DNA from: Thermoplasmata archaeon
GTDB lineage: Archaea > Thermoplasmatota > Thermoplasmata > Lutacidiplasmatales > UBA184
Assembly (NCBI GenBank): GCA_049591535.1
Contig: JBAWFC010000008.1
Coordinates: 9,791-73,790, forward strand
Length of the DNA: 64,000 nucleotides
Direction: 5' to 3'
Below are positions 8,291-52,590 of the stretch, in pieces. Under the pieces are notes generated by a model that worked only from the letters and a program-made list of their open reading frames with translations, had not been told where the DNA came from and did not search any database. The stretch's first letter is position 1. Every line of letters begins with the position of its first letter. The translations under genes were made by a program, and so were the position numbers.

Positions 8291-8436
8291 GATCGCGTTC
8301 TCCTCACGACCGCGAACTCCGCCTCAGTCGGCCCTCCACGCTTCCGCTTCTTCATGAGCCTATCCGAGGACCGAGCTTCGGACCCCGTTCGAATCCGGTC
8401 GCACCCGGACCTTCTGACCTCCGCGCCGAGCGTATT

Positions 8437-10793: not shown

Positions 10794-11473
10794 GGCGCTT
10801 CCCAGACGACCCACGAGCCGGTGGGTACGAGGTTCCCCGCTCACCGGGGTGTGGTTCCGGTGGACTCGATCCTCAAGATCCGGCGGCTGCCGCCCTGGCT
10901 ACGCGACCCATTTCGATGCCCCGCGCGCGACGGATCGCGGAGTGGGCCGAGGTCGGCGGGAGCCGCAACGGCAGGGCCAAGGGACACCGATCGACTCGCG
11001 ACGGAGATCGGGGGAGGCTCACGGACGCTCCGCTCCGGCGACCGTCTCGGTGGGTCGTTTCTGTGCCGGAGGAGCTCGAGGGGGCTGGGGTGCGGTTCCC
11101 CGAATCGGCGCGGGTCGAGCCCCCGTCACAAACCCTAAGTACCCGACCCGAGACATTTCTACCGTACGGCGTACGACGAGCCGCCCCGGAGTACACGTCG
11201 TGGCCGTTCCTATCAAGTTCGTCCGGAGAGACCGCATGGGACCGTCCGCTTCGCTGCAGCAGCCACCGCCCGGGGTGAGAACAGTCGGCCGGCGACGGGA
11301 GTGCCCTCCCCCCGCGATGGCTCCCCCCGACCGAACAGCGCGGAACGATCCGATGGGGGCGCGCCCTGCGGTCCGCGGTCCGGCGCGTTCGCACGGACCG
11401 CCCCGACCTCCCTCCGCCGCGCGGGGCGCGAGAGGCCCCGACCACGGCTCGCGCGAGACGCTACCCCGCCGCG

Positions 11474-13012
11474 ATGGGGCGTAGGATGACCGCAGGAGGA
11501 TCCGCGATCGGGAACTCCCCGGCCTCGCACCGGCACCCGAACGTCGTCGTCGTGGTACTGGATTGTATGCGTTCGATCGACTTTGCCGGCGGCTCCGACC
11601 CGGTGCCCGGCCTTCCGGCCTCGGAGAAGCTCCGGACGGAGTCCATGATATTTCCTCAGGCCGTCGCGCCCAGCCCGTGGACGATCCCGTCCCACGCAAG
11701 CCTCTTTACCGGGCTCTACCCCTGGGAACACCGAACGCACTATCGGGCAAGCCTGCTCATGGACCCCTCGGTGCCCACGTTGGCGGGCGCCTTTTCGGAT
11801 GCCGGCTATTCGTCCATCGCACTCTCGGCAAACGGCTTCGTCAGCCCGGACTTCCGCCTCACCAACGGGTTCGAAGCGGTCGGATGGGGAGACTGGTGGG
11901 AGCGCTACTTCCGCGTGCCGACGCGGACGCTGCCTCCCCGGGCGGAGCGGCTAGCTCCCACCCAACGGCTCCCGAGTGGCGCCCTGTGGCGGTCAATGAC
12001 GACGCGGGTGTCCTACACCCATCGCCTACCAGGCGCGTGGGACCTCTTGAACCGGGTTGCCCATCAGGTCCGCTGGCGGGGCGACCCACGGGCCCTGGCC
12101 GTCTCGCCGTGGATCGAGCCGACCCTGGACCGGTGGCTGACCGGTAAGCCCGTCGAGACGCCGGTCTTCTGCTTCGTGAACTACATGGAGACGCACGAGC
12201 CGTACCTCACCGACCCGGCGGTGGTCTCTCGCCTCGCGGCCTGGCTCCCGTACGCGGGCCAGCGCATCGACCGCACGAGCATCCTGACCGGAGACTGGAA
12301 GGCCAGCGCCGAGGACTTCCGGAGAATACGCGAGCTCTACCGCCAGTCCGTGCGACTGGCCGACCAGCGCCTCGGAGCCCTCATCGACGTGCTGAAGCGT
12401 ACGAATCGATGGGACAACACGGTGCTTGTGATCGTCGGCGACCACGGACAGGCGATCGGAGAGCATGGATTCCTCTTCCACGGGATCCAGCCGTGGGAGT
12501 CGATTCTGAGGGTTCCCCTCTGGTATCGCCGCCCGGACGGCCGGTTCGCCGGGACGATCGGTCAAGGGACCGCGAGCCTGGTCGATGTCGCCCCGACGGT
12601 CCTGGCGGACGCCGGGCTCGCTCCTGCGAGGGTCCAGTCCGGTGTACACCTCGGATCGCTCGCGGAGTCGCGCCGTGAGGGACCCGCCTACTCCGTGAGC
12701 GACGGGGTCCATCGGACCTCGATCGTCGGCGGCCAGGAGCGCTCCGAGGGGGTGATCCGCCTGGACCGCGTGTGGGTGACGGCCTTTCAGGGAGACCTGA
12801 AGATCGTCTGGGACTGCGGTCTCGGTCGAGCGACCGCCTACGACCTCCGGCGGGACCCGGGCGAGACGCTCGACGTGTTCGACGAGGGGTCGCCCGACAT
12901 GCTCCGACTCGCGTCCGAGGCCCGCCACCGAGCGGAACTGATGCAGAGCTCGGAGGCCGTGACGGAGTCGGTCGAGGTCGACGAGCGACTGCGATCGTGG
13001 GGATACACGTGA
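11474..13012 (+). CDS. Sulfatase-fold enzyme, paralogue 2, Thr nucleophile position; cytoplasmic
   Basis: NVVVVVLDCMRS, W-T-I-P-S-H-ASLFTGLYPWEH (Thr codon 11681-11683), IVGDHGQAIGEHG, and C-terminus ...DERLRSWGYT. It clearly aligns with 6773..8290. Confidence 0.85.
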   Translation: MGRRMTAGGSAIGNSPASHRHPNVVVVVLDCMRSIDFAGGSDPVPGLPASEKLRTESMIFPQAVAPSPWTIPSHASLFTGLYPWEHRTHYRASLLMDPSVPTLAGAFSDAGYSSIALSANGFVSPDFRLTNGFEAVGWGDWWERYFRVPTRTLPPRAERLAPTQRLPSGALWRSMTTRVSYTHRLPGAWDLLNRVAHQVRWRGDPRALAVSPWIEPTLDRWLTGKPVETPVFCFVNYMETHEPYLTDPAVVSRLAAWLPYAGQRIDRTSILTGDWKASAEDFRRIRELYRQSVRLADQRLGALIDVLKRTNRWDNTVLVIVGDHGQAIGEHGFLFHGIQPWESILRVPLWYRRPDGRFAGTIGQGTASLVDVAPTVLADAGLAPARVQSGVHLGSLAESRREGPAYSVSDGVHRTSIVGGQERSEGVIRLDRVWVTAFQGDLKIVWDCGLGRATAYDLRRDPGETLDVFDEGSPDMLRLASEARHRAELMQSSEAVTESVEVDERLRSWGYT

Positions 13013-13182: not shown

Positions 13183-14754
13183 TTACCCGGTGAATTCCCC
13201 CGGTTGGCCGAACCGGCGAAGGAACTTCTCCACCCCGGGAAGCTGCCGGCCGAGGACCCGCTCCGCCATTCGGACGGCGACCAGGTCTCCTTCGAGCACG
13301 CTTCGCGTGACGAGGATCGCGGCGAGGAAGACCAGGACGCCGACGATGTACATCGGGAACACGATCCACGCCGGAAAGTGGTACAGGCTCACGACGACGA
13401 ACAGGGGTATACCGGCGGCCAGCGAAAGGGCGAGCGGGAACACGAAGCTTCGGTGCAGGGGCCCAATCCGATGCGACCGGTGGAGCGCCAGGGCGCCCGC
13501 CGCAGGATACGCGATGCGTGCGATCGACCACGCGATCGCCGCGCCGATCAGGCCGTAGGTCGGAATGAGCGCGAAACTGAGGACGACGTTCGAGATCGCC
13601 GACACCGCGGTCGCGAAGAGGAGCGGTCGGGTCATCGCCATCCCCGCGAGCGCCGCGTTCACCGGGCCGAAGGCGACCGAGACCAGCGCGCACCCCGAGA
13701 CGATCGTCAGCGCCTCGGCGCCCGGAATGTAGGCACGTCCGAAGATCGCGCCGATCGACTCCCGGGGGAGCAGACCGAAGACCAGGAACATCGGGACCGT
13801 GAACACGAGCACCCACCGCCCGGCCGTCACGTACGCAGTGCGGATGCCGGCGAAGTCCTTGCTACCGGTCAGTCGGGCGGCGACGGGCATGAAGATGAAC
13901 GTCACTGACCCCGCCGCGATCAGGATCAGTCGACCGATGGTCATGATCGCCGAGTAGATCCCCACCTGGGCCTCGGGGCGGAACGCCCCCAGGATCAGCG
14001 TGTCCGCGTAGCCCGTCACGTAGGCGAGGGTCGTCACGCCCCAGAGCGACAACGAGAGCAGCCAGAGTCCGCTCGGAAGGTCCCTCGCCCGCGGGGCCGG
14101 GGGCACGTGTCGCTCAAAGCGCGCCCAGGCGTAGATGACGAGGGCCCCAAAGGCCACGAAGTTCGACGCCACCCAGGCGATCAGGGCGGCGGTCAGTTCG
14201 AGGTGGAAGTAGAACAGGATGAACACGAAGACCAGGAATGCCGCGGGCTGAAGGCCCTGGTTCAGGATCGCGTAGGGGACGGTGTCCTCGAACCCTTGGA
14301 AAATGGACGCGATGAACGTGCAGAGCAGCGAGAGTCCGATCGTCACGGAGAACATCTGGAAGACGACGATCAGGGTCGCCGGATCCGTCGGGGTGAAAAG
14401 CTCCGCCAGCGGCTGGGCGAGCAGATAGACCGAAAGCGACGTAACCACCGCGGCGGCCCCCGTTACCCATGCGGTCCAGGCGACGAGTCGCCGACGCACG
14501 GCGGGGTCCGGGTTCTCCGCGAGAGTTCGGGCGACCGCCTGGTGCAACCCCAGCAACGCGACGAGCGAAAGGAGCCCGGCGAACGACAGTCCGAGGTTGA
14601 AATCCCCGAACGCCGTGAGGGAGAGCCGCCGGGCGATCGCCACGCGGCTGATGAAGTTGAGCAGCAGCAGCAGGAAGGTCCCGACGACCATCGTCGCCGT
14701 TCCCCGGCCCAGGGAATCGATGGCCGAGCGACCCGCCTTAGAACTCCCTGCCAC
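13183..14754 (-). CDS. MOP-superfamily polysaccharide/oligosaccharide flippase (Wzx/RfbX/AglR-like)
   Basis: The protein is 523 aa and hydrophobic throughout (about 14 TM segments). Its N-terminus ...GRGTATMVVGTFLLLLLNFISRVAIARRLSLTAFGDFNL is typical of polysaccharide-biosynthesis (Polysacc_synt) flippases. Confidence 0.8.
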   Translation of the reverse strand: MAGSSKAGRSAIDSLGRGTATMVVGTFLLLLLNFISRVAIARRLSLTAFGDFNLGLSFAGLLSLVALLGLHQAVARTLAENPDPAVRRRLVAWTAWVTGAAAVVTSLSVYLLAQPLAELFTPTDPATLIVVFQMFSVTIGLSLLCTFIASIFQGFEDTVPYAILNQGLQPAAFLVFVFILFYFHLELTAALIAWVASNFVAFGALVIYAWARFERHVPPAPRARDLPSGLWLLSLSLWGVTTLAYVTGYADTLILGAFRPEAQVGIYSAIMTIGRLILIAAGSVTFIFMPVAARLTGSKDFAGIRTAYVTAGRWVLVFTVPMFLVFGLLPRESIGAIFGRAYIPGAEALTIVSGCALVSVAFGPVNAALAGMAMTRPLLFATAVSAISNVVLSFALIPTYGLIGAAIAWSIARIAYPAAGALALHRSHRIGPLHRSFVFPLALSLAAGIPLFVVVSLYHFPAWIVFPMYIVGVLVFLAAILVTRSVLEGDLVAVRMAERVLGRQLPGVEKFLRRFGQPGEFTG

Positions 14755-21429: not shown

Positions 21430-21454
21430 GGTCCGGTGAGCACGGTGCCGGAAG

Positions 21455-22612: not shown

Positions 22613-22763
22613 GGTGGTCAGACACCGCCGCGCACGCGCTTCTGCATATCAAGCTTACTTGCGCTCCGGCGTAGCGCAACGGCCTGCCGAAAGACGGTCA
22701 ACGGTGGGAAGGGGCATCACGGCGTTGAGGCCGGATGCCCCGAAAGGGTTCGATTACTCCCGC

Positions 22764-26900: not shown

Positions 26901-28391
26901 CTAGTCGTATCCCCACGAACGCAGCCGCGCGTCGAGTGCGACCTCGGGAGCCGCGGGGCGGCTCGACGCCTCGCTCTGGCGGGCGGCCTCCTGCGCCTCG
27001 TACGGCCGGAAGACGTCGTCCCGAACCTTCTGCGCCTCGACGCCGACGAGCCGCGTCGCCGGCACGAGGTCCGGGTCCCCCGAGACCTTCCAGCGGAGGA
27101 CTTCCCCCGAAGCGAGGTCGAGAACGAACTTCTCGTCGCCCCGGTACGCCGCCAACTGGCGGCGGTTCCACGGCTGGTCCACGCGGATCCCACGGAGCGA
27201 GCGGTTCGGGTCGGAGGCCGGACCGCCCTCGCAGAAGACGGTCCCCGAATCCGGAGCCGTCACGGAGAACGGGAACGGGGCGTGGCCCGCGTCGTCGTAG
27301 GGCACGCCGCCGGAGGCGACCGCCTTGATCCACGAATCGAGCTCGCAGAGGCTCACCCAGCGATCGACGCGCCGCGGCACCGAGAGGTTCGCCGGGGGCG
27401 ACACCACGAGCGGCACCCGGGTGATCGAGTCGGTCGCCCCGCACCCGTGGAAGACGTTGCCGCTCTCGCCGAAAGATTGGCCGTGGTCGGCGGTGACGAC
27501 GACCATCGTCCGGTCCCGCTCTCCGTGCTGCTCGAGCAGCGCGAGCAGCCGGCCGATCTTGGCGTCGGCCTCTTCGATCGAGCGGACGTACCCCGCGACG
27601 AGCGCGTCCCAGTCGACGTGGTCCTGCAGGCCCGGGACCGCGAGCAGGTAGAACCGGGGGGTGTGCATGTAGGCCCGGCCGAGAAGCCCGGGGGTGTGGC
27701 CGTTGTCCACGAGCTCGTACGGTTCGTGGACGTTCACGAAGTTGAGGAACGAGTAGAACGGCCGGTCCGTCGCCCGCTCCCGGAGCCAGTCCCCGAAGTA
27801 GCCGAGTGTGAACTCCCCGCAGACGTCCGCCTTGTAGGCGACCTCCTGCGGATGGTTCAGCATCGTGAGCGGGGCGACCAGGGGAGGGAGCTTCTCGACG
27901 AGCTTGAGCACCCGCCGGGAGTAGAGGAAGTTCGCGTGCCCGAGGAGGCTGTTCGCCACCGTCCGTTGCTCGTCGGAGATCCCGATCCGTCGGGATCGGC
28001 GGAGGTCGAACCCTTCCTCCATCCCGTACCCGCCGACGAGATGGACCATCTCGCTGAACATCGCGGTCTCGTACCCGGAGCGCTTGAGGCGCGTCGCGGT
28101 CGTGTCGGGGAACGGGACGCCTCGACGGAACGTCCGGAGACCGTGCACGTTGGGGTAAGAGCCGGTGAAGATCGAGATGTGCGAGGGAACGGTCCAGTTG
28201 GCGGGGGCGACCGCTCGGGGGAACGCGGTCCCCTGCGCCGCGAGCGCGTCGATCACGGGAGTCCGCGCGACCCGGTCGCCCTCACTCGTCCGGAAGTTCT
28301 TCGCGCGAGCGCAGTCGAGGATGATGGTGACGATGTTGGGGGAACGACCTCCGCCCGAGGAGGGCGGAGACCCGCTGGAGGGACCCGTCAT
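26901..28391 (-). CDS. Sulfatase-fold enzyme, paralogue 3, Thr nucleophile position; last gene of the coupled operon
   Basis: NIVTIILDCARA, W-T-V-P-S-H-ISIFTGSYPNVHG (Thr codon 28191-28193), VTADHGQSFGESG, and C-terminus ...DARLRSWGYD. I prefer the ATG at 28389-28391 because it forms an ATGA overlap with the upstream stop. The longest ORF starts at 28409. Confidence 0.85.
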   Translation of the reverse strand: MTGPSSGSPPSSGGGRSPNIVTIILDCARAKNFRTSEGDRVARTPVIDALAAQGTAFPRAVAPANWTVPSHISIFTGSYPNVHGLRTFRRGVPFPDTTATRLKRSGYETAMFSEMVHLVGGYGMEEGFDLRRSRRIGISDEQRTVANSLLGHANFLYSRRVLKLVEKLPPLVAPLTMLNHPQEVAYKADVCGEFTLGYFGDWLRERATDRPFYSFLNFVNVHEPYELVDNGHTPGLLGRAYMHTPRFYLLAVPGLQDHVDWDALVAGYVRSIEEADAKIGRLLALLEQHGERDRTMVVVTADHGQSFGESGNVFHGCGATDSITRVPLVVSPPANLSVPRRVDRWVSLCELDSWIKAVASGGVPYDDAGHAPFPFSVTAPDSGTVFCEGGPASDPNRSLRGIRVDQPWNRRQLAAYRGDEKFVLDLASGEVLRWKVSGDPDLVPATRLVGVEAQKVRDDVFRPYEAQEAARQSEASSRPAAPEVALDARLRSWGYD

Positions 28392-30814
28392 CCTTCGAGG
28401 ATCGTCCACTCGGCGTTCTGGTACTTGACGGAGAACTGGAAGACGGCCTCGTAGAACGTCGCGGTCGAGACGAACCCCGCCTGGTTCGGCAGCAGGAGGA
28501 AATGGATGTTGTGCTGGGCGAGGAACGTCGAGGTGTTCAGGACCGACGGGAGCACGATCGCGGGGTTGCTCGCGTCGTCCGTCGTGATCTCGAACGAGAC
28601 GGAGAACGGCTGGCCCGGGTGCGGGTTGTCGAACGTCATTTCCGCGTTGTTTGGTTCCCCCGATGTGATATTAGGCGTTCCCTCGGGGGCCGGGGTCGGG
28701 GTGACCCAACTTCGGATCGCGTAGTTCCCCGGCAGCTGGCCGAGCACCCCCGAGTCGTTCCACTCGAGGGCGCCCCCGGTCCACCAGTCTCCCGTCGCCG
28801 AGGGCGCGTGGAGGAACGAGTCCCCCGTGGGCGGTCCGGCGAGCGTGAGGTTGAACTGGGAGACGTTGGCGCCGTGGACCGGCGTGACCGTGACATTGAC
28901 CCACGTCGCGCCGCCCGCCGCGGTCGTCCCCAGCTCGGCGACGTCGAACCGTGGCGTGGAGTAGGTGAGGAGGGCCGAGTTCCCTGCCGGACCCGGCACG
29001 GCGAGCTGGGCGGCGTAGGGCCCGAGGTACGCCGGGGTCTCGGTGTAGTTTCCGCCCGAGGAACCGTTCGCGTAGATCGACTCGGGGACGACGTCGAGGA
29101 GCGGAAACGGGACCCCCTCGATGAACGCGCTGTACATCGGCGCCTGCGGCAGCGCCGTCGTGTTGAAGCCGGAGTAGGAGAGGGCCTGCACGTTGTTCGA
29201 CACCGCGGTCAGGGAGTTGAGGGCGAGATACGTCTCCTCGGCGTTGACGATCTGCCAGGACTCGAAGAGCAGCCAGGTCGGGCCGATGTCGAACGCGCCG
29301 CGGTCCGTGAGCGCCTCGCTCCACCGCACGGCGCCCTGGGTGGTCAGGATCGAACCGGACCGGCCGTTGGCGTTCAGCCACTGCGTCGCCTCGAGAAAGT
29401 AGGAGTCGTGGTCGGACCCGATCTCGGTCCGCTCGTTGCTCAGCACCGCGGGGACCGTGACGTTGGCGACGAAGAGCACGAGCACGACGAGCACCGCGAC
29501 GAGGGCGTACGCCTCGCGGGAGATCGTCCGACGCCGGCTGCGCCCGTTCGCCGGGGCGGGCGGAGCCATCCCGGGCGCTGGGGCCGGCCGGAGGCGCGGG
29601 GCGAGCACCCCCTCGAGGGAGAGGCAGAGGAGGAGGAGCACCGGAAACGTCAGGAAGTAAACGAATCGCGTGTAGTCGGTGTCGACGTGGACGACGTATC
29701 CGGCGACCGGGACGCCGCACGCCGCCAGCAGGCTCGCCGCGGCGATGTAGTGCCGGAGGTCGACGCGATGGGGGCGCCAACGGGCGGCGGTCGCGAGCAG
29801 GGCGAGGACCCCGAGGCCGGCGGTGACGAGGACCGCCACCGCGATCCAGGGACCCATCGTCACGCCGGCGGCGGCGGGAACGAGCATCGGCCCGCTGTTC
29901 AGCGGCCGGAAGATCTCCCCGATGTTGTCGATCAGGTACGCCGCGGGGTTCGACGCGATGTATCCCGGAACCTGGATCCGGAGGTACTTCGTGAGCTGCT
30001 CGTAGGCGACGACCGTCACTCCCAACACGATGAGCCCGGCGACGTTCGCCTTCGAGACGATCGTGCCCCACCAGCGACGGTCGGTGAGGACGAGGAGGAA
30101 CGCCGACACGACGACGGTCGCGGCGAACACCGCGAACGTCAGGTCGTGAGTGAGGTAGATCAAGCTCGCCACCCCGTAGAACAGGAGCCCGTCCCGGAGG
30201 GTCCGCGTGCGGAGGAACAGCAGCAACAGGACCAGTGCCTCGTTGAACAGGACGAACGCGAGGAAGTTCGGGTACCCTCCCCAGAACAGGATGGAGAGGG
30301 TCGTACCGTTGAGGACCATGAGCCCGACGAACAGCAACTGGAACGGACCGTGGACGAGGTACCGCCGGGCCACGTGGACCGTGGTGAGCCCGAACGCGAA
30401 CAGGAGCGCGCCGCCGAAGACGAAGTCGGCGGTGAGCGGGCTCCCGGTCAGGAGGACCGCGACCCCGAGGAGCGGAAAGATCCCCGGATTGTACAGGAAC
30501 GGTGAGCCGACGGCGTCCACGGGAGGGTGCGCCAGACCGACCCAGGCGAACGAGCGCTGGACCCAGTCTCCGCTGTCAACGCCGGGGGGCACCGGCGCCA
30601 TCCCGTAGGCGAGTTCGACGATCACGACCGAGACCACGACGAGGAGGAGTCCGAGCGCGAGGTACGCGCGCGAAGCCGAGGTCTCCGGGGGAGGGAGCGG
30701 CCGTTCCGGGACCTGTTCTCCCCGCCAGGCCGACACCAGCCACGACCGCGCGCCCCCCGCCGGGCGGGCCGGCGGCGGAGGGTACGAGTCGGGCTCCGGG
30801 TTCACGCTCGCCAC
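28388..30814 (-). CDS. GT-C-like polytopic membrane protein, paralogue B (~808 aa)
   Basis: The multi-TM N-terminal half carries VPPGVDSGDW after TM1 (Asp codon 30575-30577), FWGGYPNF, LTHDLTF and HVDTDYTRF. The sequon-rich extracytoplasmic C-terminal half ends in ...YQNAEWTILEG. The tool ORF extends to 31435, but that part overlaps the upstream gene. Candidate GTG starts at 30814 or 30805 overlap the upstream TGA (30802-30804). Confidence 0.75.
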   Translation of the reverse strand: MASVNPEPDSYPPPPARPAGGARSWLVSAWRGEQVPERPLPPPETSASRAYLALGLLLVVVSVVIVELAYGMAPVPPGVDSGDWVQRSFAWVGLAHPPVDAVGSPFLYNPGIFPLLGVAVLLTGSPLTADFVFGGALLFAFGLTTVHVARRYLVHGPFQLLFVGLMVLNGTTLSILFWGGYPNFLAFVLFNEALVLLLLFLRTRTLRDGLLFYGVASLIYLTHDLTFAVFAATVVVSAFLLVLTDRRWWGTIVSKANVAGLIVLGVTVVAYEQLTKYLRIQVPGYIASNPAAYLIDNIGEIFRPLNSGPMLVPAAAGVTMGPWIAVAVLVTAGLGVLALLATAARWRPHRVDLRHYIAAASLLAACGVPVAGYVVHVDTDYTRFVYFLTFPVLLLLCLSLEGVLAPRLRPAPAPGMAPPAPANGRSRRRTISREAYALVAVLVVLVLFVANVTVPAVLSNERTEIGSDHDSYFLEATQWLNANGRSGSILTTQGAVRWSEALTDRGAFDIGPTWLLFESWQIVNAEETYLALNSLTAVSNNVQALSYSGFNTTALPQAPMYSAFIEGVPFPLLDVVPESIYANGSSGGNYTETPAYLGPYAAQLAVPGPAGNSALLTYSTPRFDVAELGTTAAGGATWVNVTVTPVHGANVSQFNLTLAGPPTGDSFLHAPSATGDWWTGGALEWNDSGVLGQLPGNYAIRSWVTPTPAPEGTPNITSGEPNNAEMTFDNPHPGQPFSVSFEITTDDASNPAIVLPSVLNTSTFLAQHNIHFLLLPNQAGFVSTATFYEAVFQFSVKYQNAEWTILEG

Positions 30815-33402
30815 AGGATCTTCCACTCCGGGTTCGAGTAGGCGGGGGCGAACTGGAACTCGCTCTCGTAGTAGGCAAAGATCCGCCCCATTCCGGGGGT
30901 GTTCACGAGCACGAGGAAGTGGATATTGTTCTGGGCGAGGAACGCGTTCGTGTCGAAGTACGTCGGGAACGTGGTGGCCGGGTTGCTCGTTCCGGGGGTG
31001 GACATCGTGAGGGATACCGAGAGCGCCCCGTGGACCGTGGGGTTGCTGAACGTGAGGTGGTAGCCCACGCCGCCGATGAGGTTCGAGAACTTTCCGATCG
31101 GGACCGCGGAGAGCAGGACCTGGGTCGTGAGGGTCCTCGGGCTCGGGAGCTGGCCGATCTTCGCCGAGGTCTGCCACGTGATCAGGTTGGCGCTCCGCGA
31201 AAGGCTTGCGATCGTTCCCCGCTGGGCGAGCGGGGTGGGTTCCGGCTGGGTCAGGTTCAGGCTCACCCGGGTGATCTCGACCGAACTGTCTGCGGGCGTG
31301 ACCGTGATCGCGTCGCTCGCTTGACTCCCGGGACCCACGGAGGTGCTCACGTTCAGTAGGAAGTTCTGGGTCCGGTAGGCGAAGCTGAGGGTGGGGACCG
31401 GGGACGCGCTGTAGGCCACCGCGGACGGCGACCACGTCGCAGGGTCGTAGACGATGTTCTGGGCCCCGCTCGTGTTGTTGAAGTTCACGTCGAACTGGGT
31501 CGCGTTGATTCGCAGGATCGGCACAACCACCCCCTCGACGAACACGGCGTACCCCGGGGTGTTATTCAGGGAGTTCGAAGAGGTGCCGCCCATCGTCGCG
31601 GCCACGAGGTTGTTCGATATCGTGTAGTGCGAGTTGACCGCGAAGTAGCTTTCGAGGTCGCTCAGTACCTGCCAGCCGTAGAAGTGGAGCCAGGTGGGCC
31701 CGTACGTGAACGCGTTGCGATCGGAGAGCGCCTGGACCCAGCGCTGGGTGTCGCTCGTATCGGCGAGCACCGCTCCCGAGGATCCGTTCGAGCGCAGCCA
31801 TTGCATCGCCTCGACGAAGCCCGAGTTGTGAGTGGAGCTGGCGTAGGTGCTCTCCGAGAGCTGGACGGTCGGGACGGAGACTCCCACGAAGACCGCGACG
31901 AGGACGAGTGCGACCCCGGCCCGGATCGCCCACCAGCTCGGGGTCCGGTCCGGGCTCCATCGCGGGGCGACGGTCGCGTGACCTTCGGCCGAGCCGTCGA
32001 CGGCGCCGCCGGGGACCACGGCCGCGACGGCCGGGCCCGGTGCCATCCAGGGCCGGAGGAAGCGTTCGACCACGATCGTCGCCGTCAGGCCGAGGGGAAG
32101 GACGAAGAACAGCGTGAACCGTGCGTAGTCGGTATCCACGTGGGCGAGCCAGCCACCGACCGGCAGGAGGCACGCCGCGACCAGCGACGCGAGCGCGAGG
32201 GTGAGCCGCGGGGGAACCCAGCCGGACCTCGACCGGCGGACGAGGAGCATCGTCACGAACGTCGCGGCGGCGACGGCTACGAGGATTTCGGTCATCAGCG
32301 CGGAGTCGAGCGCGATCGCCGGCCCGATCGGCCACCAGAACGGGGCGTACCCGAGCGGATGGAACAGCTCTCCGAGGTTGTCGAGCACATAGGCGGCCGG
32401 GTTCGTCGAAAGGTAGCCCGGGTGCGGGATCGCGAGGGAGTCTGTGGCGAGGGTGTACGCGGCCACCGTCGCGCCGAGCAGGAGCAGGCCGCACAGGTTC
32501 GCCCACGAGAAGATCAGGCGCAGCCACCGTCGATCCTGGGCCAGAAGGAACGCACCCGCCACGAGCAGGGTTCCGAGCAAGACGACGAAGGTGAGGTCGT
32601 GGGTCAGGAACACGAGCGACGCGAAGGCGTAGAACAGCAGGCCGTCCCGCATCGACCGGGTACGGGTGAACGCGAGCAGGAAGACGAGGGCCTCGTTGAA
32701 CAGGACGAGCGCGAGGAGGTTCGGATATCCTCCCCAGAACATCACCTGCAAGACGGCCCCATTGAAGAGAATGAGCCCGACGAACAGGACCTGGAACGGT
32801 CCCGTAAGGAGGTAGCGCCGGGCGACGTGGATGGTCGTGAGCCCGAACAGCGCCAGCAGGATCCCCGCGAAGACGTAGGCGGTCGTGATCGGGTTTCCGG
32901 TCGCGAGGAGTACGGCCCCGAGGAGCGGGAACGTGAGCGGCGGGTACAGGAGCGGCTGAAGCGTCGGGTCGGCGCTGGGGAACGGCAGCCCGACGAACGA
33001 CTTCGAGAGGGTGATCCAGTGGGCGGGGTCCACCCCCGGAGGGATGGCAGAGTTCGCCGGCAGGGATCCGACGAACCCCCAGTACATCAACGCGACCGCC
33101 GCACCGACGATAACGAGGCACGGGAGAAGGTACCATCGCGTCACTTTCCCGGAGCCGGAACTGGCGACGGGACGGTTCGGTGGGGGGATGCTCGGCCCCG
33201 GAGAATCGGGGGATGCGGAGGGTCCCGGGGTGGGCGGAACGACGGCGGCAGCAACAGGTGGCATTGATACCGGACCGGCCGGCGGCGCCCGAGGCTGCTG
33301 GGGAAGTAATACGGTTTGCGCACCGAGGGAAATCGTGCGTGCGCGGACGGGTTCGATGGTCCCGTCCCTCCGGACCGGGATCGAGTCCGAAGCGGGGGTC
33401 AC
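30802..33402 (-). CDS. GT-C-like polytopic membrane protein, paralogue A (866 aa)
   Basis: IPPGVDPAHW (Asp codon 33028-33030), FWGGYPNL, LTHDLTF and HVDTDYARF are present, and the C-terminus is ...YSNPEWKILWRA. The GTG start at 33400-33402 overlaps the GT4 stop (GTGA). Confidence 0.8.
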   Translation of the reverse strand: MTPASDSIPVRRDGTIEPVRARTISLGAQTVLLPQQPRAPPAGPVSMPPVAAAVVPPTPGPSASPDSPGPSIPPPNRPVASSGSGKVTRWYLLPCLVIVGAAVALMYWGFVGSLPANSAIPPGVDPAHWITLSKSFVGLPFPSADPTLQPLLYPPLTFPLLGAVLLATGNPITTAYVFAGILLALFGLTTIHVARRYLLTGPFQVLFVGLILFNGAVLQVMFWGGYPNLLALVLFNEALVFLLAFTRTRSMRDGLLFYAFASLVFLTHDLTFVVLLGTLLVAGAFLLAQDRRWLRLIFSWANLCGLLLLGATVAAYTLATDSLAIPHPGYLSTNPAAYVLDNLGELFHPLGYAPFWWPIGPAIALDSALMTEILVAVAAATFVTMLLVRRSRSGWVPPRLTLALASLVAACLLPVGGWLAHVDTDYARFTLFFVLPLGLTATIVVERFLRPWMAPGPAVAAVVPGGAVDGSAEGHATVAPRWSPDRTPSWWAIRAGVALVLVAVFVGVSVPTVQLSESTYASSTHNSGFVEAMQWLRSNGSSGAVLADTSDTQRWVQALSDRNAFTYGPTWLHFYGWQVLSDLESYFAVNSHYTISNNLVAATMGGTSSNSLNNTPGYAVFVEGVVVPILRINATQFDVNFNNTSGAQNIVYDPATWSPSAVAYSASPVPTLSFAYRTQNFLLNVSTSVGPGSQASDAITVTPADSSVEITRVSLNLTQPEPTPLAQRGTIASLSRSANLITWQTSAKIGQLPSPRTLTTQVLLSAVPIGKFSNLIGGVGYHLTFSNPTVHGALSVSLTMSTPGTSNPATTFPTYFDTNAFLAQNNIHFLVLVNTPGMGRIFAYYESEFQFAPAYSNPEWKILWRA

Positions 33403-34649
33403 GGGCCGCCCGGGGGGCCCAACTCGACCCCGAGTTCCTGGAGCAAGCGCGCGTAGTCCGCGGCGACGTCCGTCCAGGTACGAATGGCGGACGGAACCGA
33501 GGGGCGTGGGGCGTCCAGCATCCGGTCCATCGCCTCCGCGAGCTCCGCCGGGCGGCCCGGCGGGACCAGGAGCCCGCGAACGCCGTCATGCGGCACGTTC
33601 TCGGAGGTCCCGGGGAGGTCCGTCCCGACGACGGGGACGCCGCACGCCGCGGCCTCTTCGAGCGCCGTCGCCGTCGACTCGAGCACACTCACGGAAGGGA
33701 CGACGACGAGGTCGGAGTCGCGGTAGAGGTTTCCCAGCTCGGGGTCGGGGACGAACCCGAGGAATTCGACCCGGTCTCGTAGCCCCAGCGCATCGACCTG
33801 ACGTTCGAGCGATGCCTTCGAAGGTCCGCGTCCCGCGATGCGGAGGTCGAACTCTCGCCCCCTCGACCGCAGGCGGGCGCTCGCGTCGAGCAGGATCGGG
33901 ACGCCCTTGTACGGGACCAATCGCCCGACGAACAGGATCCGCTTCCTTCCGGACGGGTCGGGGGTCCGGCGGACGGCGGTCCCCGAGGACGCCTCGGACC
34001 CGATCCCGAGGCGGGCCGGGTCGACCCCCTTCGGGATCACCCGCACCTTGTCGAGGTGATGCGAAAGCACGGGGGATGCCTCCGCATAGCCTCGGCTGTT
34101 GGAGACGATCGCGTCGCAGCCGTCGAGGGCCGGGTGGGCAGAAAATCGCCGGTACATCCGAGTCACCGTCCCCGCTCCCGGGCCTCCCTCGGCCGCCCCG
34201 AGGTCGGCATCCATGTGGTAGGTCAGAACGGCCGGGGCGCCGGCGCGGTGGGCCGTACGAACGGCGGGAGCCTCGACCATCGGGAACGGCATGTGGAGGT
34301 TGAGGGCTCGACTCCGCCGGATCTCGGCCCAGAGGCGACGTCGGGAGCCCGGCCCGAGGAGGAGGGGCCGTTGCCATGCCTCCCACGCCCGCAGCCGGGT
34401 CACTCGGGCGGCCCCGACGTCAAGGGCCGATGCCCCGGGGTCCCACCGGACGGTCGTCGTGAGGACCTGGGTCGGCGCTCGGGTGGCGAAATCCTGGGCC
34501 AGCCGGTACGCGTACTCCTCGGTGCCGCCGCGATAGGAGGGGGGGAGAGGTACCACCACGGTCACCGGGCGGGCCGGCCCTGCGGTAATCCCGTCCGCCA
34601 TTCTTCCGCCAAACCCCACTAGGTCAAGAGAACGGCGGAGCGACGGCAC
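33399..34649 (-). CDS. GT4 family glycosyltransferase (GT-B)
   Basis: The canonical GT4 C-terminal region is present: ILFVGRLVPYKGV ... FLGFVPDPEL ... DLVVVPSVSVLESTATALEEAAACGVPVVGTDLPG. The start is ATG at 34649 or at 34601. Confidence 0.85.
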   Translation of the reverse strand: MPSLRRSLDLVGFGGRMADGITAGPARPVTVVVPLPPSYRGGTEEYAYRLAQDFATRAPTQVLTTTVRWDPGASALDVGAARVTRLRAWEAWQRPLLLGPGSRRRLWAEIRRSRALNLHMPFPMVEAPAVRTAHRAGAPAVLTYHMDADLGAAEGGPGAGTVTRMYRRFSAHPALDGCDAIVSNSRGYAEASPVLSHHLDKVRVIPKGVDPARLGIGSEASSGTAVRRTPDPSGRKRILFVGRLVPYKGVPILLDASARLRSRGREFDLRIAGRGPSKASLERQVDALGLRDRVEFLGFVPDPELGNLYRDSDLVVVPSVSVLESTATALEEAAACGVPVVGTDLPGTSENVPHDGVRGLLVPPGRPAELAEAMDRMLDAPRPSVPSAIRTWTDVAADYARLLQELGVELGPPGGP

Positions 34650-34774
34650 TCTTTCGCCCTACCGGAGGTCACGCGCGGGGAGGTTCGGTGTCGAGGGTTC
34701 CGCACCGAAACCCGAGAGCGGCGACGCGACTTCCGGGACGATTCGACCACCGGCTGTGGCCGCGAAATTCGTCG

Positions 34775-36229
34775 TTAGGCCGGGGGGATGCCGCCCGCCG
34801 AGCCGGGGTCGCCGTCCGCGGTCACGCCCTCGGAGCCGGCCCGCCAGGAGGAACGGAAGAACGAGGGGTCCCGCCGCTCTCGAAGTACCGTGTAGTTCGT
34901 GTGGGCGACGTTGGCGGCGATCAGCGTCACGTCCCGTTGGGCCGCGAACTGCGCGATGGAGGAGCTGAGGATCCGTAGGGAGCTCAGGGGCCGGTCCGAG
35001 CTTCTCTCGAGTCGGTACGCCTGCGACCGGGAGGTTCCGCCGTCCGGCGGCTCGGGGGCCGCGTCGGGGGTGTTCTCCATGTCCACGTAGAGCATTCGTT
35101 GCCCGGACGGCATCCGGATCGTGCACGTGGGGCCCGGCCGGCGCAGAGAGCCGCGAGGCAGGGTGATCACGATCGACCACGGCTGGCCGTCGGGAGCCGG
35201 AGGTGATGGGGGGGCGGGCGACTCGGAGGCGGGGTGGGCGGCTTCGTTCGGTGGGCTCGGGATGACCGCGACCGTCATCTCAGGGTTGGCGAGGGTGAGG
35301 CGCTGCGCGAGCTCGGAGACGCCCTCGGATCCCCCGGCGGGGGCGGAGACGAACACGCGACGGCTGTTGAGCGCGAAGAGGACCGACTGAAGGTCCCGCA
35401 TCGTCGGCGCCGGGAGTGTCGGCGACGTGACCGAGTAGGCTCCGGGGGTCGGACCGGTGCCCGCCGCGGGGGGCCGGGAGTATCGGAGGATCGACAGCAA
35501 GATGCGGGCGCCGTCCTGGAAGGCGTGGAGCTTCGCCACGCCCACCCGGCTCCGGTACAGGACCGGGACCTGGGAGATCGAGAGTCCACGGCGGAACGCC
35601 TTGACAAAGATCTCCGCTTCGATGTCGAACCCTTCGGACTCGATCGGAGTCTGCTCGAGGGTCGAGGTGCGAATTCCCCAGAGCCCGCTGCAGACATCGA
35701 GGATCGGGCCCTTCGCGAAGTATCCGGCGAGCAAGTTGAGGACGCTGTTTCCCAGCCGGTGGATCAGTCCCTTCAGCTCGCTCATGGCGTGGCGGTCCGG
35801 TCGACGGACGCCGATCACGAGGTCGGACCCCGCGTCGAGCAGGGTCGCCATGGACGGAAGCGCGGCCCCGGGGTACGTGAAGTCCGCGTCCATCACGATC
35901 ACGTAGGGGATCCCGCGGTCGGTCGCCCAAGCCATCCCTTCCCGGACCGCGGCTCCCTTGCCCTTGCCCTGCTGGACGAAGAAGGTGGTCCCGAGCGACC
36001 GGGCAACGGAGGGGGTCCGGTCGGTCGAATGCCCGTCCACGACGACGACCGTAGGGTCGAACCCGAGGTTTCGGAGTTCCGCGATCGGGAGGTCCCCGAG
36101 AGTGGCCCGGAGTCCCTCTTCCTCGTTAAGGGTCGGAATGACTACGGCCAAGCGCGCGGGCGCGATGACCGTTCGACCCTCCATGGTTATACATCCCCCA
36201 GAGCGAGGTTGACTCCCCATCGCTTCCAT
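34775..36229 (-). CDS. GT2 glycosyltransferase with ~230-aa uncharacterised C-terminal extension
   Basis: The GT2 core is LAVVIPTLNEEEGL ... VVVDGHSTDRT ... VIVMDADFTYP (D-x-D) ... DVCSGLWGIR. After ~residue 255 comes a Pro-rich linker, then a domain I do not recognise (...RVFVSAPAGGSEGVSELAQRL...RMLYVDMEN...). Confidence 0.8.
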   Translation of the reverse strand: MEAMGSQPRSGGCITMEGRTVIAPARLAVVIPTLNEEEGLRATLGDLPIAELRNLGFDPTVVVVDGHSTDRTPSVARSLGTTFFVQQGKGKGAAVREGMAWATDRGIPYVIVMDADFTYPGAALPSMATLLDAGSDLVIGVRRPDRHAMSELKGLIHRLGNSVLNLLAGYFAKGPILDVCSGLWGIRTSTLEQTPIESEGFDIEAEIFVKAFRRGLSISQVPVLYRSRVGVAKLHAFQDGARILLSILRYSRPPAAGTGPTPGAYSVTSPTLPAPTMRDLQSVLFALNSRRVFVSAPAGGSEGVSELAQRLTLANPEMTVAVIPSPPNEAAHPASESPAPPSPPAPDGQPWSIVITLPRGSLRRPGPTCTIRMPSGQRMLYVDMENTPDAAPEPPDGGTSRSQAYRLERSSDRPLSSLRILSSSIAQFAAQRDVTLIAANVAHTNYTVLRERRDPSFFRSSWRAGSEGVTADGDPGSAGGIPPA

Positions 36230-36310
36230 GCCTTAAACCTGTTCCTCTCCAAAAGTAGGGGTGTGTATGCATCCCCATGGGTGCGCTTCGGTCCCCAGTC
36301 GATGTAACGC

Positions 36311-38992
36311 GTGTGTGCCGTCGTGACACGGGACGCGGCTCCTCTCTCGGAAACCCGTCGACCGGCAGCGCTCCGGACGCGTTTTCGGGAGCTAGCTTTA
36401 TACTCCGAACCCAGCATCGGTCGGCCCCTCGGGGGACCGGAGGTAAGTGTCGCACAGGTGTCGGTGCCTTCATCTGTTCGGGGGGGGCACTATTCGCTAG
36501 TGTCCGCCGTTTTGGAACCGACTCCGGCGCCCACCCCGGGGCCCGGTTCGGACGAAGGATCCCGGGCGGGCACCCCCGAGAATGACCCCCGACCCGGCTG
36601 GGCGACCCAGTTCTCCACGTACCTGGGGACGCGCGACGGGGCCAGCTGGGCGGTCGCGGTGTTCATTTCGGGCGCGATCTCTATCGGGCTGGCCGTCGTG
36701 ATCTTCCAGTACCCGATCCCGCCGGGCGGGGACCCAGGGACCTGGCTGTCGACGAGCTATGCGTACATCGGACGCTCGTACCCGTCCCAGGTCTTTCCCC
36801 TCGCCTACCCTCCGGTCATGTTCGTGCCCTTGGGTCTCGCCGTCCTCGTCGGCGGTGGGCCGATCGGGGGCGCGCAGCTGTTCGCGCCGCTCCTGTACTT
36901 TGCGCTCGGCCTGTCGATCTTCGCCCTCGCGATCAATGTGCTGAAAAGCCGTCTCGTCGCCCTCGTCGTGCTCTCGTTCATCGTCCTCGATCCGCAGCTG
37001 CTCCAGATGGTGTTCTGGGGGGCGTATCCGAACCTGTTCGGATTCCTCCTGATGAACCTCGCCTTTGTCGGTCTCCTCACGATGGGACGCGGTGCCGTCT
37101 CGCGAGGCGCCCTGATCTTCTGGCTCTTCGCGACGCTCACCGTCCTGACCCATTCTCTGACCGCGCTGGTCCTGGCCGGGGGCACCGGACTGTTCCTGCT
37201 CCTCGCCTGGGCGATGCCGGTCCCGTCAACGGAGACCCTGGTATACCAGGCAAAACGCAACGAGGTCGATGTCCCGAAGGTGATCCCCCGCGGCCTCTTC
37301 TTCACGAAGGGGGGCCGCTACGGCTTCGTCGGGTTCGTCATCGCGGTCTCCGCGTACTACTTCCTCACCGCGCTCGCCCACGTCCCCCACCCGGACTACT
37401 TCGTCTCGAGCGCGCTCGCGTTCCGGACGATCGGCCTCGGCGGCGTGCTGACGGCCGTCCTTCCCGGGATCCTGATCGTGGCCCTGGGCGCCGTGTACGT
37501 CCTCACCGTGCTGGTCATCGTCGTCCTGCTGACGTACTCCGGGCTCTACCTCTACCGCCTGAAGTACCTCACGACCCCGGTCCTGCTTCTGATCGCGATC
37601 GGGGTGGTCGTCCTCACCGTGCCCATCATCGGCTGGATGTTCAAGATCGTCACGGACTACCGCCGGTTCGGCTACTTCCTCCTCATCCCCCTCGGCCTCA
37701 CGTTCGGTTACATCATCGACCGGGGTTGGATCTCGGCCGGTGGTCCCCGCGAGCGCGGCCGAGCGAATGCGGCGTCGAACGCTCCCCCGATGCCCCCGAC
37801 GGTTCGGCGATGGATGGGACGGGCCCGTCACCCGCGGCGCATCATCTCTCTCGCCCTCATCGCGTTCGTGCTGACCCTCCTCTTGGCGGTCAGTATCACG
37901 GCGCCCGAGATGAACAAGTACGAGATCACGTTCACGCGGGTCGGGCACGACCAGTACTTCCTCGACGCGCTCAGCGCGATCACCCATTCGGGGCTCCCGG
38001 GAGGCATCCTGACCGTCGCGGGGGCCGACAAATGGGCGCGGGCGATCACCGGTCGCAACGCGTTCGCGCCGTACACCCAAACGGACTACCTGTTCTACGA
38101 GAGTCAGATTCTCGATTCGGAGCTCGCCTACTACGCCCTCAACTACCATTATGCGGTCACGAACGGGCTCGTGTCGGCGGGGATCAAGGGTACCCAGGCG
38201 CAGTACACACTCGGGATCCCGTCGTACGGTATCTATTCGGTGGGGACGTACCGCTCCATCCTCAAGATCCCCCCCCAGATGGTCGAGGTGGAGCTGATCG
38301 GGGCGACCAACCACACGGCCTACCACGAGAACATGACGACCAACCCGACGGTGGACGTTCCCCCCACGTCGGGCGGAGGGCCGCTCGAGGTCGTCTACAC
38401 GGAATCGGACTTCGTCTTCACCGAGAGCATGGTCGTGGCACCGACGACCCCGTATCTGTACCTCGCCTTCCACGTGCAGGCGACGGGCGCCGACCTGGTC
38501 CGAGCGTTGAATATGACCCTCCTTCCGTCCAACACCACCAGCGCGCGGATCCTCCCGACCCCCGTCGCCGGTAACTTCAGTTGGGACACGGTCACCGCCA
38601 ACATCGGGCCGCTGACGCGAGGGAACGTGACGCCGGCGTCGGCGCTCGTGGGGATCACCCAAGACCTCCCGATCACCGACCTCACCGGCTCTCCCGCCGT
38701 CCTGCTCTCCTACACGTCGGCGAGCACGAACGGGAGTCTCTCGGTGGCCGGCCAGTTGACGTTGACGACGCCGGCGGCGTCCACGATCTTCAACGTCGTG
38801 CCACCCGTGATCGACACACCGCAGATCTTCACCCAGCTCGGCGTCGGCTTCGTGCTGATGCGGAACTCGACCTATCCACCGATCCCGGCTCCGGGTGCGG
38901 CGTACCCGCAGGAAGCGTCGTACTACCAAGCCGAGTACGGTGCCCAGGTGATCTACCAGAACCCAGAGTGGACCGTGCTCACGGTCCCGTAA
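36311..38992 (+). CDS. GT-C-like polytopic membrane protein, paralogue C (start probably near 36458)
   Basis: IPPGGDPGTW (Asp codon 36731-36733), FWGAYPNL, LTHSLTA and IVTDYRRFGYF are present. The C-terminal extracytoplasmic domain ends in ...YQNPEWTVLTVP. It is transcribed divergently from the GT2 gene. Confidence 0.8.
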   Translation: MCAVVTRDAAPLSETRRPAALRTRFRELALYSEPSIGRPLGGPEVSVAQVSVPSSVRGGHYSLVSAVLEPTPAPTPGPGSDEGSRAGTPENDPRPGWATQFSTYLGTRDGASWAVAVFISGAISIGLAVVIFQYPIPPGGDPGTWLSTSYAYIGRSYPSQVFPLAYPPVMFVPLGLAVLVGGGPIGGAQLFAPLLYFALGLSIFALAINVLKSRLVALVVLSFIVLDPQLLQMVFWGAYPNLFGFLLMNLAFVGLLTMGRGAVSRGALIFWLFATLTVLTHSLTALVLAGGTGLFLLLAWAMPVPSTETLVYQAKRNEVDVPKVIPRGLFFTKGGRYGFVGFVIAVSAYYFLTALAHVPHPDYFVSSALAFRTIGLGGVLTAVLPGILIVALGAVYVLTVLVIVVLLTYSGLYLYRLKYLTTPVLLLIAIGVVVLTVPIIGWMFKIVTDYRRFGYFLLIPLGLTFGYIIDRGWISAGGPRERGRANAASNAPPMPPTVRRWMGRARHPRRIISLALIAFVLTLLLAVSITAPEMNKYEITFTRVGHDQYFLDALSAITHSGLPGGILTVAGADKWARAITGRNAFAPYTQTDYLFYESQILDSELAYYALNYHYAVTNGLVSAGIKGTQAQYTLGIPSYGIYSVGTYRSILKIPPQMVEVELIGATNHTAYHENMTTNPTVDVPPTSGGGPLEVVYTESDFVFTESMVVAPTTPYLYLAFHVQATGADLVRALNMTLLPSNTTSARILPTPVAGNFSWDTVTANIGPLTRGNVTPASALVGITQDLPITDLTGSPAVLLSYTSASTNGSLSVAGQLTLTTPAASTIFNVVPPVIDTPQIFTQLGVGFVLMRNSTYPPIPAPGAAYPQEASYYQAEYGAQVIYQNPEWTVLTVP
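36396..36403 (+). promoter_or_regulatory. TATA-like CTTTATAC upstream of the third GT-C-like gene
   Basis: Read directly. It lies inside the 5' end of the maximal ORF 36311.., which suggests the true start is downstream, for example the in-frame GTG at 36458 preceded by GGAGG at 36439-36443. Confidence 0.35.
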
Positions 38993-52550: not shown

Positions 52551-52590
52551 TGTCAAATAGACACGGTCCTCCCCGACCGCGGTACGACCC

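Follow-up and report, generated by a model that had tools for sequence, protein, structure and literature searches.

A small, uncharacterised family of GT-C-like membrane proteins related to AglB/STT3 in Thermoplasmata, and its recurrent sulfatase-fold partner

We analysed a 64,000-nucleotide stretch of DNA (hereafter the window; G+C 62–73%) from contig JBAWFC010000008.1 (contig C8, positions 9,791 to 73,790) of GCA_049591535.1, a 1.97-Mb, 90-contig metagenome-assembled genome (MAG) of a Thermoplasmata archaeon, and focused on three genes for large membrane proteins that, by fold and enzyme class, are very probably glycosyltransferases of the GT-C type. These are referred to as paralogue A (28388..30814, minus strand; 808 aa), paralogue B (30802..33402, minus strand; 866 aa as called) and paralogue C (36311..38992, plus strand; 893 aa as called), and all three reading frames were open at these coordinates. 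Residue numbers below are those of B as called, unless stated otherwise. A previous reading of this DNA from its sequence alone had described the three proteins as colinear paralogues, and pairwise comparison showed end-to-end alignment, with 42% identity between A and B and 24–28% identity of C to A and B. A search of the whole genome with B recovered A at E 3.3e-156 and C at E 2.7e-35 and 4.4e-24, and no fourth copy was found in the 1.97-Mb assembly. The motifs quoted in that reading, namely (I/V)PPG(V/G)D, FWG(G/A)YPN(F/L), LTH(D/S)LT, (VD/IV)TDYxRF, (R/K)W..A(L/I)(T/S)(D/G)R(G/N)AF and N(A/P)EW(T/K)(I/V)L, were all present in A, B and C. The codons that it gave for the Asp of the first motif, at 30575–30577 (D80 of A, a catalytic candidate), 33028–33030 (D125 of B) and 36731–36733 (D141 of C), were correct by arithmetic from the gene coordinates, and the WWDxG motif, which it had reported as missing, was absent from all six frames of the window.

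The called starts of B and C, which the sequence-only reading had adopted, probably lie too far upstream. G+C at third codon positions (GC3) was 0.70 in the first 86 codons of B and the first ~100 codons of C, compared to 0.89–0.91 in the gene bodies, such that the long, Pro-rich N-terminal extensions of both proteins had a non-coding-like GC3. The N-terminal stretches were also disordered in the AlphaFold2 model, and a database protein near-identical to B was 780 aa long. Both starts were therefore placed downstream, that of B probably at the GTG at 33144, giving 780 aa, and that of C probably near 36500. The first 45 codons of A, with a GC3 of 0.89, were coding-like. When B is started at 33144, its apparent 4-bp overlap with the neighbouring GT4 gene disappears.

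To describe the fold, B was modelled with AlphaFold2 from a 33-sequence alignment and the model (mean pLDDT 84.4, pTM 0.82) was compared to the PDB using Foldseek. In the model, a first transmembrane (TM) helix (TM1, 89–111) was followed by an external loop with two short helices (125–136 and 157–168) and then by ten further TM helices, the last of which was TM11 (490–520), for a total of 11. Beyond TM11 lay an alpha/beta segment (~521–600) and then a long beta-sandwich (~600–866). The top matches were STT3 from yeast and human oligosaccharyltransferase (OST) complexes (best E 2.3e-7), PglB, EmbA/EmbB and ArnT, spanning E 2e-7 to 8e-4, all of which are GT-C enzymes belonging to structural class ‘A’; target-normalised TM-scores were 0.41–0.52 for STT3, PglB and ArnT and 0.21–0.25 for the Emb chains. 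The polytopic N-terminal TM module of B thus matched solved GT-C(A) enzymes and no transporter fold appeared among the Foldseek matches of B, which bears out the GT-C similarity proposed earlier. A second group of matches (E ~1e-4 to 1e-3, 230–320 columns) consisted of beta-sandwich domains: those at the N terminus of GH65 phosphorylases and of GH63 YgjK, and those found in polysaccharide lyases. It indicates that the distal C-domain, as modelled, is a sandwich of the type found in carbohydrate enzymes.

Lys and Arg made up 20.1% of the predicted cytoplasmic loops and 2.0% of the external loops (33 sequences, helix boundaries from the model), and 226 of the 230 N-x-S/T sequons in the same sequences (~7 per protein) fell in the C-domain, with 4 elsewhere. 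Based on this loop bias and sequon distribution, the N terminus would lie inside the cell and the C-domain outside; a topology of N-in/C-out with 11 TM helices is accordingly predicted for each of A, B and C from the model built on B. The external C-domain comprised ~350 aa; its membrane-proximal part was conserved, and its beta-sandwich part was divergent and rich in sequons.

Residues P122, G123, D125, W129, Y153, P155, F222, W223, Y226, P227 and N228 were invariant in 33 homologues, as were H268, T424, D425, R428, W555, F574, Q578 and W860, and at least 90% conservation was retained by D125, W129, Y226, P227, H268, R428, W555 and R562 after more distant relatives (17–20% identity) had been added. 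D125, the Asp of PPGxD, was found 14 residues past TM1, where it opens the juxtamembrane helix 125–136 of external loop 1 (EL1); the conserved acidic residue of GT-C enzymes, in the first extracytoplasmic loop just after TM1, is hence present in the family. This Asp is extracytoplasmic, as had been proposed, the outer location being indicated by the Lys+Arg bias and the sequons, and it is invariant, being present in 33/33 homologues. In the model, PPGxD and the FWGxYPN, LTH and TDYxR motifs, as well as an NPAAY..DN.GE loop, were all predicted at the outer face of the membrane, and D125, W129, F222, W223, Y226, P227, N228, H268, T424, D425 and R428 are our candidates for the active site.

The only Pfam match obtained for A, B and C was PF10131 (‘PTPS_related’) on residues 153–298 of B (E 0.001, 18.1 bits), which was below the gathering cut-off (26.4 bits) and covered just the first ~150 of 621 profile positions; when the whole genome was searched with PF10131, B alone was returned, at 21.7 bits. 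Neither A nor C had a meaningful Pfam match, and NCBIfam gave no match on any of the three. Likewise, A, B and C did not match Pfam STT3 (PF02516) at E up to 1 or PMT/PMT_2 (GT39, PF02366/PF13231), a whole-genome search with PMT_2 was empty, and no MIR or TPR domain was found in the three proteins. PF10131 is a member of the GT-C clan CL0111 and has no known function (PMC7801869). Some homologues of A, B and C carry a precomputed PF10131 match, and the three proteins themselves differ in scoring below its cut-off, PF10131 being itself uncharacterised. The earlier description of an ‘uncharacterised GT-C family’ is therefore fair, since curated families leave A, B and C uncovered above threshold. 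The three proteins fall outside GT66, PF10131 and PMT/PMT_2 and inside the GT-C fold definition, and constitute a new, uncharacterised family within a known superfamily.

A word-indexed search of 5.8 billion proteins identified 35 relatives, the named ones all from ‘Thermoplasmata archaeon’ MAGs, and an exhaustive HMMER search of 1.84 billion representatives gave 343 at E ≤ 1e-3 and 112 at E ≤ 1e-30. The distant HMMER relatives were ~700–930 aa long and were matched over the TM module; among ten that were scanned, one was above the Pfam cut-off for PMT_2 and one for DUF6541, and several matched PF10131 or DUF6798 just below the cut-off. All 35 related loci found in contigs from one genome per species belonged to Thermoplasmata/Thermoplasmatota MAGs, among them acid-soil and peat MAGs of Candidatus Lutacidiplasmatales and Ca. 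Lutacidiplasma silvani. Several genomes contributed more than one locus, most of the long loci (≥12 kb; n = 24) held at least two family copies, and up to five or more paralogues stood in tandem in some genomes. Of 201 genomes sampled evenly across the class, with five candidates scored per genome so that counts are lower bounds, 4 were matched, all in the genus of the window (17 genomes listed), and no match was seen in the 75 other genera sampled. The Lutacidiplasmatales genome paper is silent on glycosylation, sulfatases and the envelope. Overall, A, B and C are very probably members of a small family of integral-membrane glycosyltransferases with a GT-C(A) fold that is not yet classified and has so far been seen only in Thermoplasmata MAGs, some of them labelled Lutacidiplasmatales.

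The relation of this family to AglB was examined by hhalign profile–profile comparison to an alignment of 16 Thermoplasmata AglB sequences. The score was 51.5 (P 5e-5, probability 67%) over 187 colinear columns (B 207–416, AglB 220–427), compared to scores of 22–29 (P 0.035–0.2) for controls with reversed or block-shuffled AglB alignments. This signal is weak but real, and agrees with the Foldseek ranking. Within it, the NPAAY..DN.GE external loop of the family aligned with the loop of AglB in which STVAE, the oligosaccharyltransferase motif S/T-I/V-x-E, is found. The EL1 (N-terminal) piece alone gave no significant hhalign match to AglB, and comparison to a single AglB sequence was uninformative. 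We also considered equating the post-TM pattern ‘EAxxWLxxN...RW..AL.DR.AF’ with the OST pattern ‘WLxxN..WWDYG..R’ and rejected this, as the alignment to the C-domain of P. furiosus AglB was weak (E 3.5) and hhalign of the C-terminal piece gave 0.3% probability in a different register; neither alignment was used.

The genome has its own canonical AglB with WWDYG on another contig (G000:C86:10329-11549, minus strand; locus L005). This AglB lies in a 2242-aa open frame, and its homologues, of 1100–1665 aa, extend past the OST part with domains of the carboxypeptidase-regulatory-like and related Ig-like repeat types; a C-terminal extension of such size is unusual for an AglB. The sequence-only reading had called the three proteins ‘not AglB’, which stands with regard to membership, as they lack WWDxG and an STT3 Pfam match and AglB is encoded elsewhere, but AglB/STT3 is nevertheless their closest relative by fold and profile. 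We consider that they are best described as an AglB/STT3-related GT-C family that is not an AglB. AglB/STT3/PglB (GT66, PF02516) gave the best Foldseek matches, and AglB was the sole family with a profile–profile signal above controls; features in common are a GT-C(A) module whose EL1 begins with an Asp, an acidic long external loop and a large external domain after the last TM helix. The three proteins differ in having no WWDxG or STT3 Pfam match, in having 11 rather than 13 TM helices, and in a distal C-domain that is a beta-sandwich resembling GH65/GH63 and lyase domains.

A maximum-likelihood tree of 51 family members translated from the loci had two deep clades with 100% SH-aLRT support each: clade I, which contains A and B, and clade II, which contains C. 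The three paralogues each had a well-supported orthogroup of their own, and their orthologues in other MAGs were 46–54% identical, above the identity among the paralogues. By this sequence comparison A, B and C are therefore old, separately maintained copies and not recent tandem duplicates. Identity between paralogues was 36–57% in the TM core (112–300), 33–49% in the membrane-proximal C-segment and 20–28% in the distal sandwich (601–820), a pattern of divergence that would be expected if catalysis were shared and the acceptor different. Since there are three old orthogroups and the distal C-domain is the most divergent region, three specificities for the three paralogues, as the sequence-only reading had suggested, are plausible.

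The neighbours of these genes include a candidate for donor formation. A minus-strand string was composed of a GT2 gene (34775–36229), a GT4 gene (33399–34649), B, A and a sulfatase-fold gene (26901–28409), with overlaps at the A/B and A/sulfatase-fold junctions. C was divergent from the GT2 gene 34775–36229, and downstream of it were genes for two anchored glycoside hydrolase (GH)-like proteins and a Kelch protein. Farther out, two more sulfatase-fold genes, two NPP-type genes, another GT4 and GT2, and a Wzx-like gene were found, and the window also held an ABC transporter gene set, two adenosine 5'-phosphosulfate (APS) kinases, an ATP sulfurylase and ComA. The GT2 at 34775..36229 (minus strand; PF00535), the first gene of the string, had a catalytic domain like that of dolichyl-phosphate mannose (Dol-P-Man) synthase (DPMS) plus a soluble C-terminal domain of ~230 aa; its sole PDB sequence match was P. 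furiosus Dol-P-Man synthase (5mlz, E 1.8e-11), and it is a candidate for the enzyme that makes a lipid-phosphate-sugar donor. Its soluble domain (residues ~250–484) had no Pfam match and was conserved in loci L013, L024, L029 and L030, in which 443–445 aa aligned. These loci, the closest relatives, also had synteny of the cytoplasmic GT4 (33399..34649, minus strand; GT-B fold, PF00534/PF13439). The second GT2 (9966..10793, plus strand; PF00535) matched DPMS 5mlz, ArnC and GtrB 5ekp in the PDB, such that both GT2s, as judged from these matches, belong with polyprenyl-phosphate sugar synthases. The gene at 13183..14754 (minus strand; PF01943 and a weak MatE match) encodes a candidate flippase of the Wzx/MOP type. 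This gene and the GT2 at 9966–10793, both named in the sequence-only reading, are thus real by their Pfam matches.

Genomic context was counted in the 24 long loci among the 35 related loci and, at the level of genes, over 49 family genes. A GT2 homologous to those of the window was within 5 kb of a family member in 10/24 long loci, and homologues of the Wzx-like protein were encoded near family genes in L010, L011, L024, L034 and L039. Another family member adjoined 24 of the 49 family genes, and 18/24 long loci had at least two family genes; an NPP gene was present in 9 of the 24 and an ATP sulfurylase in 6. The surface proteins encoded next door were very sequon-rich, with Thr/Asn-rich stalks. 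An anchored, sequon-rich protein of unknown family (45801–47522, minus strand) had a homologue ≤700 bp from 7/49 family genes, on the opposite strand in 6 of the 7. At the other end of the window, a polytopic membrane protein was encoded at 3952–6573 (plus strand; 873 aa, called protein P0227, 800 aa) that had no Pfam match, ~9 hydrophobic peaks and a large sequon-rich C-terminal domain, and homologues of it were near family genes in L018, L021 and L034. It was considered as a fourth family member and rejected, there being no hhalign link and a word-based homologue search returning it alone; its AlphaFold2 model from 4 sequences (pLDDT 44) was unusable.

The recurrent pairing with sulfatase-fold genes was the strongest contextual signal. 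A sulfatase-fold gene was ≤700 bp from 23/49 family genes, with just two of these on the opposite strand, and within 5 kb of a family gene in 21/24 long loci. This adjacency was clustered on the family tree, with 9 changes compared to 19.6 for shuffled labels (0/200 shuffles as low), and members of the orthogroup of A were directly followed by a sulfatase-fold gene. In the window, the partner of A (26901..28409, minus strand; PF00884), which overlaps the end of A, is a soluble protein with Thr at the formylglycine position (APANWTVPSH); when it was aligned to arylsulfatase 3ed4, this Thr was at the position of the nucleophile. Two further soluble paralogues of the Thr type were encoded at 6773..8323 (minus strand), homologues of which flank clade II family genes elsewhere, and 11279..13012 (plus strand). 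All three lacked a TM segment or signal peptide and had Thr in place of the formylglycine Cys/Ser and His in place of Arg (AP..WT(V/I)PSH). They also had in common a C-terminal ...RL(R/S)SWGY tail, and equalled the GT-C paralogues in number, at three each.

Two convergent APS kinase genes (21440–22006, plus strand; 22076–22648, minus strand), an ATP sulfurylase gene (52561–53757, plus strand) and a gene for a ComA-like phosphosulfolactate synthase fused to a winged-helix domain (54084–55388, plus strand) were also present. From this gene content the island is predicted to make 3'-phosphoadenosine 5'-phosphosulfate (PAPS), and it may also make a C-sulfonated compound. Deleting two sulfatase-like genes in the aglB cluster of Halobacterium salinarum eliminates specific sulfations on the N-linked tetrasaccharide (PMC11980604). 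The products, Agl30 and Agl31, are sulfatase-like members of the alkaline phosphatase superfamily encoded in the N-glycosylation cluster and needed for glycan sulfation, and at least one of them (VNG1057C) is soluble and cytoplasmic (PMC11980604). They are the nearest known proteins to the partner gene, and not to the GT-C proteins, with no orthology implied, and differ in that pairing with GT-C genes is not reported for the Halobacterium cluster. The protein encoded at 26901–28409 is a candidate for an Agl30/31-like glycan sulfotransferase, and because PAPS synthesis and Agl30/31-like sulfatase-fold enzymes are encoded together, the glycan product of the island is probably sulfated.

Taking these observations together, we think it fairly probable that A, B and C are long-maintained GT-C paralogues, remotely related to AglB/STT3, that add sugars outside the cell from lipid-phosphate donors. 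From the nearby DPMS-, GtrB- and ArnC-like GT2 genes we infer a polyprenyl-phosphate-linked sugar as the donor. According to this model, a cytoplasmic DPMS-like GT2 would load a sugar onto dolichyl phosphate, and the lipid-linked sugar would be flipped outward, a step for which the Wzx-like protein is the candidate. The GT-C enzyme would then hold the lipid phosphate via Arg, His and Tyr residues of its outer face (R428, H268), and the acceptor hydroxyl would be activated by the EL1 Asp, perhaps assisted by D425, the D341/E345 loop and a metal ion, with the Asp acting as a catalytic base or metal ligand as in other GT-C(A) enzymes (general description in PMC11127046). The sugar would be passed to a glycan bound by the beta-sandwich domain, and the three paralogues would make three different additions to surface glycans; the acceptors may be N-glycans of the sequon-rich neighbouring surface proteins, a lipoglycan or protein side chains.

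Several observations weigh against this model of outward-facing sugar addition. Beyond fold, topology and conservation, the activity, donor and acceptor of A, B and C are what we infer from context, and D125 is likened to the catalytic Asp of STT3/PglB/ArnT by position and not by residue alignment, of which Foldseek gives none. PDB sequence-profile searches, with the family profile or a widened one, returned nothing significant, and no curated family model reached its cut-off on A, B or C. On the donor side, the GT2 34775–36229 lacks the C-terminal TM helices of the archaeal Dol-P-Man synthase, and the Wzx-like gene is ~14 kb from the family genes in the window and near family genes in 4/24 long loci. 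Moreover, the standard GT-C model leaves the close pairing with a cytoplasmic sulfatase-fold enzyme unexplained, and distribution within the genus is patchy (4/17 genomes, a lower bound). Such patchiness is a pattern typical of variable surface-glycan islands.

The same fold and context can be read in other ways, of which the strongest, though still unlikely, is that the paralogues elongate or branch a lipoglycan or exopolysaccharide, one linkage per paralogue, like mycobacterial Emb, Aft and Mpt. EmbA/B were among the top structural matches, the C-terminal beta-sandwich looks carbohydrate-binding, as in Emb and AftD (PMC11127046), and up to five or more tandem paralogues occur per genome. Wall-less Thermoplasma also carries mannose-rich lipoglycans, which we count in favour of a polymer. 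However, an essential envelope polymer is hard to reconcile with so patchy an occurrence in the genus, and the sequon-rich surface proteins encoded nearby fit decoration of protein glycans equally well.

It is slightly less likely again that the family acts like an oligosaccharyltransferase, transferring a glycan assembled beforehand, as one block, from dolichyl (pyro)phosphate to an acceptor other than a sequon (Ser/Thr, lipid or glycan). This would account for STT3 and PglB being the best structural matches, for AglB alone giving a profile–profile signal above controls, and for the shared architecture of a TM module with a large external C-domain right after the last TM helix, and the GT4 and Wzx-type flippase of the island are typical of lipid-linked oligosaccharide assembly. 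It is, however, opposed by the absence of WWDxG from the window and of a Pfam STT3 match, by 11 TM helices as opposed to 13, by the canonical WWDYG-bearing AglB elsewhere in the genome, and by the resemblance of the adjacent GT2s to synthases of monosaccharide-phosphate lipids.

A role as PMT/TMTC-like protein O-glycosyl (O-mannosyl) transferases, acting on the Ser/Thr-rich stalks of the neighbouring anchored surface proteins, appears improbable. Although distant relatives of the family matched Pfam PMT_2 above cut-off and the neighbouring surface proteins do have Thr/Asn-rich stalks, the PMT and PMT_2 searches of A, B and C and of the whole genome were empty, MIR/TPR domains were lacking and PMT structures were outside the top 50 Foldseek matches. 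Least probable of all, and by our estimate very improbable, is a protein that is not a glycosyltransferase (a scaffold, a transporter or a transferase that, together with the sulfatase-fold partner, handles a non-sugar group such as a sulfated or phosphorylated head group), which would suit a pairing unlike any characterised GT-C system and a nearest Pfam family, PF10131, of no known function, but conflicts with an invariant outer-face Asp/His/Arg set and GT-C(A) fold that are typical of catalytic GT-C enzymes and with a partner that is cytoplasmic whereas the conserved face of the GT-C proteins is outside.

Returning to A, B and C as transferases of single sugars, a more speculative extension, which we hold to be unlikely, is that each GT-C protein and its adjacent Thr-type sulfatase-fold enzyme form a cognate pair that installs a pre-sulfated (or otherwise esterified) sugar. 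The cytoplasmic partner would modify a dolichyl-phosphate-linked sugar with PAPS made by the island, and the sugar, once flipped, would be installed outside by its own GT-C paralogue. If true, such pairs would be a modular route to sulfated surface glycans, using an AglB-derived family that gave up its sequon-binding site, and this route would have no described counterpart.

The single-sugar model has precedents in known extracytoplasmic systems. In Haloferax volcanii, AglD, AglR and AglS are a Dol-P-Man synthase, a flippase-associated protein and an outside-acting Dol-P-Man mannosyltransferase, respectively (PMC3871713). The sequence-only reading had proposed a multiplied version of this logic, and it fits the context because both GT2s matched polyprenyl-phosphate sugar synthases: once a GT2 has charged dolichyl phosphate and the lipid has been flipped, a displayed glycan receives the sugar from an outward-facing enzyme, and the window holds the GT2 and Wzx-like parts. 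The differences are that three paralogues are present here, with many orthogroups across the order, and that AglS is likened by description and not by sequence. Bacterial three-component systems (GtrA/GtrB/Gtr*, CsbB/YfhO and GT136 ORF12) similarly combine a GT2 synthase, a flippase and a GT-C enzyme, which sometimes has an extra carbohydrate-binding domain, and in the GT136 system the flippase is of the MATE/MOP type (PMC11127046). These systems differ in being bacterial and using undecaprenyl phosphate, and none is described with a sulfatase-fold partner; no sequence similarity of the family to them was detected, YfhO itself not being among the sequences compared.

GT-C enzymes carry out the extracytoplasmic steps of protein, lipid and polysaccharide glycosylation, and new GT-C families are still being founded on single characterised members, such as GT136 in 2024. 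The overall logic of a Dol-P-sugar and an outward-facing GT-C enzyme is already well known and the organism is uncultured; what is unusual in this family is its descent close to the OST branch, its multiplication into many orthogroups and its recurrent sulfatase-fold partner. The family adds a well-defined, confidently modelled GT-C group without Pfam/NCBIfam coverage, whose many orthogroups have arisen within a single order of uncultured archaea from acid soil. Being closest to oligosaccharyltransferase but with the peptide-binding motif replaced, it offers a case study of how an OST-like scaffold may be re-used for other acceptors. It is also tied genomically to PAPS synthesis and to sulfatase-fold proteins of a type shown genetically to sulfate archaeal N-glycans, and residues D125, H268, D425 and R428, together with the candidate donor-synthase partners, make its proposed role in building surface glycans testable.

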